Shown here: one piece after another, positions 29,090 to 31,383 of the stretch
How positions within the stretch are numbered: the first letter of the stretch is position 1
How the letters are laid out: each line of letters begins with the position of its first letter
Notes under the pieces: model-generated
Database searches by the model: none
What the model was told of the DNA's origin: nothing
Seen by the model: the letters and a program-made list of their open reading frames with translations, nothing else
From: a virus
Lineage: Duplodnaviria; Heunggongvirae; Uroviricota; Caudoviricetes
Direction: 5' to 3' (one strand)
Length of the DNA: 51,912 nt
IMG/VR virus record: IMGVR_UViG_2718218100_000010
Translations under genes and position numbers: made by a program

Positions 29090-29342
29090 CTGATGTATGT
29101 CTCCGTCACCGCCGACAGAAAATGAAAGTAAAGGAAAACAAAAAGCCGCCAGTGTCACCCACTGACGGCCAACTCCGGGAGCCGTGATTATGGCATTCAG
29201 GCTCTGCTAAAAATGCCAGATAACATTCCGGCCCCCCTGGTTCAGGTTATAAATGACACAATATCTTGACAACATCCGTCACTGTCTGTCAGAAAATATA
29301 CCGCCAGGCATAAGTATCATGTGAAATCCAACTATCCTTTTG

Positions 29343-29386
29343 AGCCAGCACCTCTCCACCGAAAGTCAGTGCTGGCTGTTTTTTTC
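29343..29386 (+). terminator. Plus-strand intrinsic terminator, antisense to the late operon
   Basis: Stem agccagcac/gtgctggct followed by TGTTTTTTT. Confidence 0.55.
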
Positions 29387-29492
29387 CTTAATAAAGCATC
29401 TGTAACTGAAACAATCCGCATATTGATAATATATTGACAGGCATCATTGCTGTCTGTGAAAAATAAGTCTCTACAAACATATAAGGCCTTTT

Positions 29493-29533
29493 AGCCAGCG
29501 TCTTCTTTCAGGTCAGTCGCTGGCTTTTTTTAT
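29493..29533 (+). terminator. Second plus-strand intrinsic terminator abutting the nanS-p stop
   Basis: Stem agccagcg/cgctggct followed by TTTTTTT. Confidence 0.55.
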
Positions 29534-31383
29534 TATGCTGCCGGTGCATTTATCTCCAGCACCAGACTTTCTATCTCAACGCCATACGCTGCATTTTTTG
29601 TAACATCCGTCAGCGTCAGCGCATTCAGCCCCAGTGTCAGACTGTCTTTTATAACCTGGAATGCCGGGCCAGCCACTCCATTCAGTTTCGGAGTAACCGT
29701 GGCACTGCCGGCGGTGAACACCAGCTCCAGCGTCTGCCAGTCGTTACCGTAATCGCCGAACTCCCCCAGCTTCGTGTTTCCGGCTTTCCTGTGATGCATC
29801 AGATTCACTCTGCCGTCAGTGGTCTGAGTGAAGTACGACATCAGGAACGGATTACCGGTACCCGTCATCGCCACACCATCAGGAACGGGAGCATCCGTAT
29901 ACAGATAAATCCCCAGCCCGAACTGATTGTTGGTCAGCGCGCCTGACAGGCGGAACTTACAGGTCAGTCTGCCGCCCTGTGTCAGCAGGGTAATTGCGTC
30001 ATCCACCGGATGCGTCAGGGACCAGGTTTTATTGCTCTGCCTGGTGATCTTAAATACACCATCTGACAACTGAATTCCGCCATCCTTAATGCTCCAGCCC
30101 TGCGCAGCAGCCTCTCCGTCTGCCGGCAGCAGGGAGATTGTGCGAACGGACGTATCTGCAGACGGACCCGATGGCGTGTTGCCGCCGGGCGAGGGTTTGA
30201 TTTCCGGTGCCTTACCACTGATGAAGGCTGAGGTGCGCCCGGCTGCGTTCAGAATAGCGGTTGCCAGACGATCCGGAATAATGCTCCTGCGCGCCCATGA
30301 ACTGAAATGTGTCGGGCGGTTTGATGATACCTGGTTTCCATTCGTTCTCGATGCCGCACCGTAATATCCTGATGCCGGAATATCCGGATCTTCTGCCGGC
30401 GCGTTAGTGGCGGTATTGACGCCGTTACCGTCTGTCATGAAGGGCACAAAATAAACGCCCTCACTCTCCCTGTTTTTATACCCGCCGTACACGGTGTCGT
30501 ACTGGGTAGCGTATGTATTTTTCCAGTAATACGTCGTGTCACCACAAATCCACGGCACATCTGCAGCACTGCCACCATGGCACTGCGCGTTAAACACGGA
30601 GAGGTCAGCACGAAACTGTGTCAGCATGGCTGTAAACAGCGCAGGTTGCTGTGCGTGGGTGGCGGCGCTCATGTCAAACTCACCCTGCATCCAGCAGACG
30701 GCCAGCAGAACGTTTTTGGGATTTTTCTGCAATGCCGCTTTTGTGCGGGAAATCAGATCCTGATATAACGGCTTGCCCCCCCCCCAGCGTGCCGAATCCT
30801 GACTGGCCCCCGTGGACTCGCTGAATGTCCCCTCCGCGCCCTGGGTAAATGCCGAACCACCACGACAGCATGGTACCAGCAGGATCCCCGCGTTATTCGG
30901 GATATACGGGAGCAGTTTTTTGGCAATATGTAAGCCCTGGCCGACACAGCCGTACTGCCCTTTGCTCAGGTCTGCCTTCGGATGATTCAGCGTACTCATA
31001 TCCTGCACATCATGCAGGCAGTGGTCGGCCGGAATAATATCGTTATATCTGTAGGCAGCCCCACCCGGCGTCACTGTACTGCGGCGCGCCAGCTGTTTAA
31101 TGCGCGGATCCGGAGCATCGTATGAATCCGGCAGCGGAAGCCCTTCACCGTAAGCCATGGCATTGGACTGCCCGGCCAGTACGATGACGTAGTACCAATC
31201 CGGCTCAGTTGCACCACTGACCACCACATCACCTTCTGCTGTAATCGCCTGCATCAGGGTATAAGGGGTTATGGCCACCGGACTACCAAACGGCTGCCAG
31301 CCCTCTTTCAGTTTGTGTGTCAGCTTTTCCGCAAGGTCTGACGGCGACGCCGCCCTGACAACATCATAATGTTTAAATGTCAT
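29533..31383 (-). CDS. Prophage sialate O-acetylesterase NanS-p-like, 616 aa
   Basis: SGNH-like GQSNAMAYG active-site motif; size and position between Q/tRNAs and holin as for nanS-p in Stx-type phages; GGGAGG RBS. Confidence 0.75.
   Translation of the reverse strand: MTFKHYDVVRAASPSDLAEKLTHKLKEGWQPFGSPVAITPYTLMQAITAEGDVVVSGATEPDWYYVIVLAGQSNAMAYGEGLPLPDSYDAPDPRIKQLARRSTVTPGGAAYRYNDIIPADHCLHDVQDMSTLNHPKADLSKGQYGCVGQGLHIAKKLLPYIPNNAGILLVPCCRGGSAFTQGAEGTFSESTGASQDSARWGGGKPLYQDLISRTKAALQKNPKNVLLAVCWMQGEFDMSAATHAQQPALFTAMLTQFRADLSVFNAQCHGGSAADVPWICGDTTYYWKNTYATQYDTVYGGYKNRESEGVYFVPFMTDGNGVNTATNAPAEDPDIPASGYYGAASRTNGNQVSSNRPTHFSSWARRSIIPDRLATAILNAAGRTSAFISGKAPEIKPSPGGNTPSGPSADTSVRTISLLPADGEAAAQGWSIKDGGIQLSDGVFKITRQSNKTWSLTHPVDDAITLLTQGGRLTCKFRLSGALTNNQFGLGIYLYTDAPVPDGVAMTGTGNPFLMSYFTQTTDGRVNLMHHRKAGNTKLGEFGDYGNDWQTLELVFTAGSATVTPKLNGVAGPAFQVIKDSLTLGLNALTLTDVTKNAAYGVEIESLVLEINAPAA

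Follow-up and report, generated by a model that had tools for sequence, protein, structure and literature searches.

Two plus-strand hairpins opposing the late operon of a tailed-phage genome as probable terminators of adjacent Hfq sRNA genes, PasA and a sister unit

Hfq-dependent RNAs of prophages and tandem sRNA genes

Several short prophage-encoded RNAs that bind Hfq have been reported in pathogenic Escherichia coli. PasA (pathogenicity-associated sRNA A) of EPEC E2348/69 was established as an Hfq-dependent sRNA by northern blot and RIL-seq, both strand-specific, and the stability of the E2348/69 copy requires Hfq (Pearl Mizrahi et al. 2021, PMC8550237). The RNA occurs in a major form of 85 nt and a minor form of 236 nt, which are annotated as such in Table S6 of that work, and it has 41 RIL-seq partners, mostly in trans, with PasA as RNA2 in 94-100% of the chimeras; most of these partners are core, LEE or bfp mRNAs from unlinked loci (PMC8550237). 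In a 2026 preprint on PasA distribution (Zhu, Shabalina and Storz) it was suggested that the PasA 5' end may come from processing (bioRxiv 10.64898/2026.05.13.724894). Published work treats the region downstream of the major form as part of a minor PasA isoform, and holds that pasA copies are never tandem (bioRxiv 10.64898/2026.05.13.724894; PMC8550237). In EHEC O157:H7 Sakai, EcOnc51 and EcOnc52 were found as Hfq-CRAC peaks in the prophages Sp12 and Sp4, respectively; they were published as CRAC peaks only (Tree et al. 2014, PMC4104026). What is established experimentally on expression, size, strand, Hfq dependence and RIL-seq or CRAC partners comes from these two strains, EPEC E2348/69 and EHEC Sakai, while the present analysis concerns the identity of a related locus, its tandem-duplicate anatomy and the re-mapping of EcOnc51 and EcOnc52.

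The locus lies in a window of 51,912 nucleotides, the whole stretch analysed (IMG/VR record IMGVR_UViG_2718218100_000010), and contains two units, each ending in a hairpin: unit 1, which corresponds by sequence to PasA, and unit 2 downstream of it. The anti-sRNAs (sponges) AgvB and AsxR, whose partner in lambdoid 'moron' regions is STnc100/PasD, resemble these units: they are short prophage RNAs that bind Hfq, oppose the late operon and combine conserved 3' terminators with variable 5' ends. They differ in showing no sequence or Rfam relation to PasA or unit 2, in lying upstream rather than downstream of nanS-p, and in carrying the seed at the 5' end, whereas that of PasA lies in the terminator stem. 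An AgvB copy is present in the same window (31531-31592), 2 kb from the sRNA units. OmrA/OmrB of E. coli and PrrF1/PrrF2 of Pseudomonas are likewise neighbouring sRNA paralogues, every gene having a promoter and a terminator of its own, and PrrH is the longer read-through species of PrrF1/PrrF2, comparable to the 236-nt PasA form; these pairs belong, however, to the core genome and are under defined regulators, OmpR and Fur.

Plus-strand terminators and the identity of unit 1

The intergenic region is bounded by nanS-p, coding for a SASA-family 9-O-acetyl sialic acid esterase (29533-31383, minus strand), and by the gene of a 68-aa class II holin (28883-29089, minus strand, with the true ATG at 29089). 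An earlier note on this DNA had described two tandem plus-strand intrinsic terminators here, among genes that all lie on the minus strand, and this description is borne out, with hairpin coordinates correct to within 1-2 nt. Terminator 1 (29343-29385) has a stem from A29343 to T29377, followed by a G and a run of seven T (T29379-29385). Terminator 2 (29493-29531) has a stem from A29493 to T29525 and a seven-T run at 29525-29531, which directly adjoins the nanS-p stop codon (29533-29535). As plus-strand RNA both hairpins are stable, with folding energies of -16.3 kcal/mol (z = -3.8) for the first and -16.0 kcal/mol (z = -4.5) for the second, values that 0 of 200 shuffles equalled in either case. 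In the curated record of phage 434 (OL657226) the same two plus-strand terminators were annotated independently, together with one on the minus strand; the latter is present in the window between the sRNA genes and the holin gene (29134-29170), as an 11-bp stem followed by TTTTTGTTTT (-20.5 kcal/mol, z = -4.7). Of the two plus-strand hairpins a simple terminator scan caught only part of hairpin 2, because both loops are longer than its loop limit. A 38-aa plus-strand open reading frame (29321-29437), which reads through terminator 1, was rejected as spurious.

The same hairpins also fold well on the minus strand (-20.8 kcal/mol for hairpin 1 and -15.5 kcal/mol for hairpin 2), which might suggest that their role is on the late mRNA, in stabilisation, processing or pausing, the plus-strand T-runs being incidental. 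This reading is very hard to sustain. On the minus strand the hairpins run into CAAAAGG and TAAAAGG, and so lack a U-tract, as had been noted before, while the plus-strand T-runs are kept in all variants among the homologues compared. Across the homologues 95% of the stem cells are paired and three of the nine pairs show compensatory changes; four stem cells form U-G pairs in the plus reading only and become A-C mismatches on the minus strand. This covariation indicates that it is the plus-strand RNA structure that is under selection. Furthermore, strand-specific northern blot, RIL-seq and CRAC data place the RNAs on the plus strand, where a promoter-like motif lies at sRNA distance upstream of each hairpin.

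By homology to the E2348/69 gene and an exact probe match, unit 1 is identified as the PasA sRNA gene (29301-29385, 85 nt, plus strand), an RNA published earlier, and expression of the window copy would be expected from that of its homologue. Compared with E2348/69 PasA (NC_011601, 743499 to 743415) the identity is 75/85, and the ten differences all fall within nt 2-31, leaving the 3' 54 nt identical; the window copy is thus probably a 'PasA-2' type variant with a diverged 5' third. The published northern probe GCCAGCACTGACTTTCGGTGGAGAG matches 29353-29377 exactly as its reverse complement. The gene order esterase, sRNA, holin, in the orientation '> < >', is common to the window and the E2348/69 locus, and a 3' terminator with U-tract and the conserved seed GCCAGCACCU accompany this homology and synteny. 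The seed, given in Fig. S5 of PMC8550237, corresponds to the 5' arm of terminator 1 (29344-29353, GCCAGCACCT). When the published ends are transferred to the window, the 5' end falls at 29301 and the 3' ends at 29385 for the 85-nt form and 29534 for the 236-nt form, the latter (29301-29534) stopping at terminator 2. Rightward transcription into short RNAs antisense to the late operon, as predicted in the earlier note, is supported by this strand-specifically detected 85-nt RNA starting at 29301. Rfam covariance models gave no family at the gathering threshold in 29050-29650, and at E <= 10 only noise (snoRNA, Arrc14); PasA and PasC, a related RNA of EPEC, are absent from Rfam 15. A search of the literature for other names of the locus (nanS-p, sRNA, Hfq) returned reviews only.

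Promoter-like motifs and the second unit

A common motif, ATATnTTGACA-N10-CTGTCTGT, is found about 100 nt 5' of each terminator. In unit 1 it reads ATATCTTGACA-N10-CTGTCTGT (29261-29289, plus strand) with the -35 hexamer TTGACA at 29266-29271, and in unit 2 ATATATTGACA-N10-CTGTCTGT (29429-29457, plus strand) with TTGACA at 29434-29439. It occurs exactly twice in the 52-kb window, the chance expectation being 0. In unit 1 exactly 30 nt separate the last base of the perfect -35 from the mapped PasA 5' end, and in unit 2 the distance to the expected 5' end is the same. At a 17-bp spacer the -10 is unconvincing in both units, the candidates being a weak TCAGAA (29289-29294) in unit 1 and TGAAAA in unit 2, and therefore the promoter assignment rests on geometry and conservation. 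For the same reason a consensus promoter scan of the plus strand upstream of both RNAs found none, as the -10 regions fail its rule; its lone candidate, at 29406-29435, disagrees with the RNA ends and was discarded. That no convincing sigma-70 promoter had been seen by eye, as noted previously, is explained by these weak -10 hexamers; the perfect -35 hexamers had been passed over. No convincing match to an alternative sigma factor or LexA box was found in CTGTCTGTCAG. The unit 1 motif is kept in about 120 IMG/VR loci and that of unit 2 is nearly invariant, even in divergent copies with a variable RNA body; since the sequences of the family are very alike overall, this conservation discriminates weakly within unit 2 copies, and the comparison of unit 1 with unit 2 is the stronger argument.

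Taken as a whole, the sequence of the locus indicates a diverged tandem duplication in which promoter motif and terminator were kept while the RNA bodies diverged. The pair recurs at a spacing of 167-169 bp in 74 IMG/VR and reference loci. Unit 2 would encode an RNA of about 66 nt (29469-29534, plus strand), with a +1 predicted 30 nt past the -35, and this RNA is the equivalent of EcOnc51 and EcOnc52. The coordinates of EcOnc52 on NC_002695.2, read directly, give the unit 2 sequence; those of EcOnc51 do so after a correction of about +140 bp between versions of the Sakai genome. The version shift was calibrated by fuzzy matching of published probes on AsxR, AgvB1, STnc100 and the EcOnc10 terminator, the value at 2.237 Mb being deduced from calibration points that lie 3 kb and 49 kb away. 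On this calibration the placement of EcOnc51 on hairpin 1, which results from uncorrected NC_002695.2 coordinates, was rejected. The corrected starts fall within about 1-3 nt of the predicted unit 2 +1, the ends lie just past terminator 2, and the letters are almost all those of window 29469-29534. In EPEC, RIL-seq RNA2 fragments at 743267-743294 fall on terminator 2. On these alignments EcOnc51 and EcOnc52 correspond to unit 2 and not to PasA, though the literature cites both as PasA homologues. In Sp4, an IS629 has removed unit 1, and it is there that EcOnc52 sits; in the published CRAC peak table, no peak is found on unit 1 of Sp12. The Sp4 and Sp12 copies of unit 2 are identical, so that multi-mapped CRAC reads cannot prove expression of the IS-truncated copy.

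The earlier note had described the terminators as tandem. On a one-unit reading, as implied by the published annotation of major and minor PasA forms, only the unit 1 promoter would fire, terminator 2 would be a fail-safe against read-through, and the unit 2 motif a dead relic of the duplication. The 236-nt band seen with a PasA-specific probe, so annotated in Table S6 of PMC8550237, speaks for this, as does the low share of unit 2 fragments, about 2% of PasA fragments, in activating EPEC conditions. Several observations nevertheless make it a rather unlikely account. The -35, CTGTCTGT and an A-rich -10 region are common to both paralogues and are kept where unit 2 copies diverge and the RNA body varies. 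EcOnc51 and EcOnc52 begin at the predicted unit 2 +1, with no peak called on unit 1. Loci with unit 2 only exist, persisting after IS insertions and on plasmids. The ratio of unit 2 to PasA RIL-seq fragments is 119/4983 in one condition and 54/116 in the other, a change of approximately 20-fold. Motif, geometry, unit-2-only loci and ratio change all favour a reading in which unit 2 would be transcribed from a promoter of its own. The region is better read as two tandem units, each with a promoter-like motif; what stands of the one-unit description is the read-through of terminator 1 that gives the 236-nt form.

Single-unit alleles fit this organization. PasC, of EPEC prophage PP5, shares with unit 1 its promoter and 5' end column, while its terminator is a variant of that of unit 2 and directly adjoins the esterase stop codon; unlike the window locus, it consists of one unit. 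The exact PasC terminator serves as unit 2 terminator in another IMG/VR locus (L069). By sequence, PasC looks like a recombinant of units 1 and 2, formed by a deletion of about 168 bp or by recombination between the tandem hairpins. We lean, with some reserve, toward regarding the PasA locus as a two-gene cassette, in which a second, independently transcribed Hfq sRNA (unit 2) has been folded into PasA by the literature and from which recombination between terminator hairpins produces PasC and other alleles of one unit. The region is found in 698 of 5426 complete E. coli genomes (about 13%), with a median of 5 copies, and in a one-genome-per-species collection it was found, chance matches aside, in E. 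albertii only.

Pairing in trans, the late operon and implications

The position of the units against the late operon had suggested roles in lysis timing or nanS-p expression. Pairing or collision with the late transcript could tune nanS-p, or the holin and lysis timing after induction. In favour of this, the units and the late operon are read toward each other, and the 236-nt form is complementary over its whole length to the late mRNA of the intergenic region. At its 3' end this form reaches into the nanS-p stop codon, but by 2 nt only, and 212 nt lie between the PasA 5' end and the holin ATG, with no overlap of the holin coding sequence or ribosome-binding site and with the minus-strand terminator in between; an oop-like cis-antisense arrangement, defined by overlap with a coding sequence or ribosome-binding site, is thus not found. 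Together with the 41 mostly trans partners of PasA, this geometry argues against the proposed part in lysis timing. Modulation of nanS-p retains a little support. The last codons of the nanS-p mRNA carry the PasA target motif CUGGUGCUGGA (29555-29565, minus strand), which forms eight contiguous Watson-Crick pairs with the seed (CCAGCACC with GGUGCUGG), and the esterase mRNA 3' end is among the PasA RIL-seq partners with target motif, which in Table S7 of PMC8550237 include E2348C_0688 (743175-743305) and E2348C_1246. Such pairing, however, would use the trans seed rather than the antisense overlap, and the 8-nt match alone is not significant. Whole-length RNAduplex predictions that paired PasA or unit 2 with the 3' end of nanS-p were discarded, as they gave unrealistic full-length duplexes and 19% of shuffles were as good. 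Moreover, PasA partners are mostly unlinked core, LEE or bfp mRNAs, and the lysogens in which the RNAs were detected had not been induced, a state in which the late operon stays essentially silent. A cis-antisense function is for these reasons improbable.

The hairpins are most probably, and in our view with high confidence, the Rho-independent terminators of two adjacent paralogous sRNA genes, PasA and unit 2 (EcOnc51/52), with trans-acting Hfq RNAs. Both genes would be read on the plus strand, against the late operon, in the nanS-p/holin intergenic region, each from a promoter of sigma-70 type whose -35 is perfect and lies about 30 nt before the RNA start, and whose -10 is weak. Partial read-through of terminator 1 would yield the 236-nt PasA isoform ending at terminator 2. 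The RNAs would be produced in the lysogen, bind Hfq via terminator hairpin and U-tail, and base-pair with mRNAs in trans, PasA through the 5' arm of its terminator stem; any regulatory outcome would be putative.

The observation that prompted this analysis was correct, and mostly known, as the RNAs had been detected experimentally before in pathogenic E. coli. Few accessory-genome sRNAs in EPEC are as highly connected as PasA, whose partners include LEE and bfp virulence transcripts, and since about 13% of complete E. coli genomes contain it, as a rule in several copies, correct annotation matters in Stx and lambdoid prophages. To this the present work adds that the second terminator is probably that of a distinct sister sRNA, that a coordinate shift between genome versions appears to have led to EcOnc51 and EcOnc52 being assigned to the wrong unit, and that PasC may be explained as a recombinant of units 1 and 2. 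The general picture of prophage-encoded Hfq sRNAs is unaltered by these points. If true, the two-gene cassette would contradict the recent claim that pasA genes are never tandem, and the locus would be a tandem pair of the OmrA/B or PrrF kind, with 5' seeds reshuffled on mobile prophages.

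The nanS-p/holin spacer and its first unit, PasA

The spacer between nanS-p (29533-31383, minus strand) and the gene of a 68-aa class II holin (28883-29089, minus strand) spans 29090-29532 (443 bp) and carries two hairpins with their T-runs on the plus strand. The stem of the first covers 29343-29377 and is followed by a G and seven T (29379-29385); that of the second covers 29493-29525, with a T-run (29525-29531) adjoining the nanS-p stop codon. As plus-strand RNA they fold at -16.3 kcal/mol (z = -3.8) and -16.0 kcal/mol (z = -4.5), with 0 of 200 shuffles as stable in either case; on the minus strand both fold too, but CAAAAGG and TAAAAGG come next. 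The same two plus-strand terminators are annotated in the curated phage 434 record, and the hairpins are confirmed where the earlier note placed them. The late-operon strand has a strong intrinsic terminator at 29134-29170, some 45 nt before the holin ATG; its 11-bp stem folds at -20.5 kcal/mol and precedes TTTTTGTTTT. It is also annotated in phage 434 and would halt non-antiterminated transcription from nanS-p before the lysis genes. A 38-aa GTG-initiated ORF (29321-29437, plus strand) crosses terminator 1, is without support and is probably spurious.

No Rfam family matching the RNAs of this spacer was found. The first unit (29301-29385) corresponds to PasA, which in EPEC E2348/69 has a major form of 85 nt (NC_011601, 743499 to 743415) and a minor form of 236 nt (NC_011601, 743499 to 743264; Table S6, PMC8550237), on the strand opposite to its neighbours E2348C_0688 (esterase) and E2348C_0689 (holin) (PMC8550237). 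Aligned to the window, the PasA 5' end falls at 29301 and the 3' ends of the major and minor forms at 29385 and 29534; positions 29353-29377 are the exact reverse complement of the published northern probe, GCCAGCACTGACTTTCGGTGGAGAG (PMC8550237). Window and E2348/69 copies are identical at 75 of 85 positions, all ten differences lying within nt 2-31. A recent preprint describes a common variant, "PasA-2", whose 3' end is conserved and whose 5'-most 40 nt diverge (Zhu, Shabalina and Storz 2026, bioRxiv 10.64898/2026.05.13.724894), and the window copy, which fits this description, is probably of that type. The preprint also reports the synteny esterase-PasA-holin-lysozyme, phage YYZ-2008 included (bioRxiv 10.64898/2026.05.13.724894), and this phage matches the locus by BLAST at 96% identity. 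Northern blots have validated PasA, and it loses stability when Hfq is missing; RIL-seq gives it 41 partners, with PasA as the second RNA of 94-100% of its chimeras (PMC8550237). The short antisense-oriented RNA proposed earlier is borne out.

A tandem second unit

Units 1 and 2 can be aligned, the RNA bodies between their shared elements having diverged. Both contain AATATnTTGACA-N10-CTGTCTGT with an A-rich stretch after it; both also have ATAAGTnTC and a terminator TTTTnAGCCAGC...GCTGGCT with a T-run. The first motif (18 specified bases) occurs at exactly two sites in the window, 29261 and 29429, the chance expectation being none. In unit 1, TTGACA ends at 29271, 30 nt ahead of the 5' end reported for PasA (29301), and in unit 2 its last base is equally far from position 29469, the predicted start of an RNA ending near 29534; this distance is canonical sigma-70 geometry. 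Neither the earlier note nor a consensus promoter scan saw a promoter, because the hexamers at a 17-bp spacer, TCAGAA and TGAAAA, are poor -10 elements.

A scan of IMG/VR and of reference loci gave 127 locus strands with the motif: 74 with both units at 167-169 bp spacing, 2 with the pair at other spacings, 42 with a unit-1-type promoter alone and 9 with unit 2 alone, among them IS-truncated copies and copies on ~90 kb plasmids. On plasmid pL3 (NZ_CP071714, 86732-86891; loci L103 and L006) and similar ~90-kb plasmids, unit 2 stands by itself next to IS elements and a uilS lactonase gene, accompanied by a piece of the esterase 3' end, and its terminator has a U-G pair and a changed closing pair. 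In more divergent copies variation affects the first ~20 nt of the unit 2 RNA, and both its promoter stretch and its terminator are conserved, as would be expected of a live sRNA gene whose 5' region varies. Among 16 distinct terminator variants from both units, 95% of stem cells are paired, 3 of 9 stem pairs show compensatory changes (C-G/U-A, A-U/G-C), and four U-G cells would be A-C mismatches if read on the opposite strand.

Tree et al. 2014 reported Hfq-CRAC peaks with terminators in prophages Sp12 (EcOnc51, 2237479-2237555, plus strand) and Sp4 (EcOnc52, 1181998-1182075, minus strand) of EHEC O157:H7 Sakai (PMC4104026). These coordinates refer to the older sequence NC_002695.1, and the shift to NC_002695.2 was calibrated on independently locatable features: EcOnc08, which adjoins the STnc100 3' end like AsxR in Sp5 (1.18 Mb, about 0), AsxR (1.268 Mb, +135 to +139), AgvB1 (1.94 Mb, +137 to +146), STnc100/EcOnc04 (2.19 Mb, +117 or more), and EcOnc10, which needs a shift of about +140 to land on a promoter-plus-terminator unit (2.234 Mb). 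Across the Sakai loci used (L004, L005, L127-L132, L150, L151), the two versions roughly agree at 1.18 Mb (offset about 0) and differ by about +137 to +142 bp over the stretch that begins at 1.27 Mb and reaches at least 2.23 Mb; reading the published tables on the current RefSeq record misplaces most prophage sRNAs. After the shift, EcOnc52 covers unit 2 of Sp4 and EcOnc51 unit 2 of Sp12, both starting about 1-3 nt from the predicted +1, and the published table has no peak on unit 1 of Sp12. In Sp4, everything upstream of promoter position -31 of unit 2, unit 1 included, is replaced by IS629. The two unit 2 copies are identical (peak lengths 78 and 77 nt in Sp4 and Sp12), and the peak areas are nearly equal, as multi-mapped reads would give.

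In EPEC RIL-seq, five partners, escD among them, are listed for "pasA.E2348C_0688.IGR", which takes the second place in every chimera (PMC8550237). It has fragments at 743267-743294, corresponding to terminator 2, and its abundance relative to PasA is 119/4983 in one growth condition and 54/116 in the other. Taken together, the CRAC peak positions and these fragments favour, with moderate confidence and with the identical Sp4 and Sp12 copies inseparable, a unit 2 RNA made independently, besides the 236-nt read-through form. On this reading the two terminators of the earlier note would belong to two genes instead of one unit. This tandem-paralogue reading is an addition to the literature and runs against the preprint, according to which pasA copies never occur in tandem (bioRxiv 10.64898/2026.05.13.724894); assigning EcOnc51/52 to unit 2 is another addition. 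PasC (E2348/69 PP5) has the promoter and 5' body of unit 1, but its terminator is of the unit 2 type and runs directly into the esterase stop codon; the unit 2 terminator of one tandem locus (L069) is identical to that of PasC. Recombination between the two hairpins, deleting ~168 bp, would best explain this composition. Such a recombinant origin would also be new to the literature.

Distribution and neighbouring RNAs

Of 5426 complete E. coli genomes, 698 carry the 447-bp spacer (median 5 copies), with 100% identity in an O157:H7 chromosome and 99.3% in phage H-19B. With one genome per species, the tandem motif was found in E. albertii only, the other 16 matches being single and at the chance-expected number, which agrees with the family being confined to Escherichia and Shigella (bioRxiv 10.64898/2026.05.13.724894).

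A third sRNA-like unit lies downstream of Rz (26188-26289, plus strand), with a promoter-like TTGAAA-18-AAAAAT, a 9-bp hairpin and seven T. The identical Sakai Sp12 sequence coincides, after coordinate correction, with EcOnc10, a very abundant Hfq-CRAC peak with paralogues EcOnc11 and EcOnc12; no published characterisation of EcOnc10 was found. Immediately upstream of nanS-p, full-length AgvB, an anti-GcvB sRNA (31531-31592, plus strand, 96.5 bits), and the PasD-related STnc100 (31593-31785, minus strand, 145.8 bits) are convergent. The window has no stx genes. Three tRNA genes (33152-33401, minus strand) are Met-CAT by ARAGORN (ileZ tRNA-Ile in the Sakai annotation), Arg-TCG and Arg-TCT, and Rfam identifies sok, a hok/sok-type antitoxin (36454-36628, minus strand), isrK with the C4 antisense RNA of a P1/P7-type immunity region (44840-45028, plus strand) and RalA, the RalR antitoxin (50178-50356, minus strand).

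Putative targets and mode of action

Given the identities with PasA and EcOnc51/52, the finding is real and already described; the observation is confirmed and its interpretation partly supported. As published, PasA has its seed in the terminator stem, whose 5' arm, GCCAGCACCU, it forms (PMC8550237), a placement called unusual by the preprint authors (bioRxiv 10.64898/2026.05.13.724894), and in the window it lies at 29344-29353. The 3' ends of two esterase genes, both carrying CUG(A/G)UGCUGGA, are RIL-seq partners of PasA (PMC8550237), and the minus strand of the window reads CUGGUGCUGGA at 29555-29565, with 8 bp complementary to the seed. Because of these partners and this match, the suggested modulation of nanS-p gains a foothold, the putative pairing being through the trans seed. 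An antisense role in lysis timing is unsupported, the RNAs lying at least 212 nt from the holin start, and is further disfavoured by the strong minus-strand terminator (29170-29134) between them and the holin. The mechanism with most support is a pair of Hfq-dependent, trans-acting base-pairing sRNAs, which the prophage would express during lysogeny.
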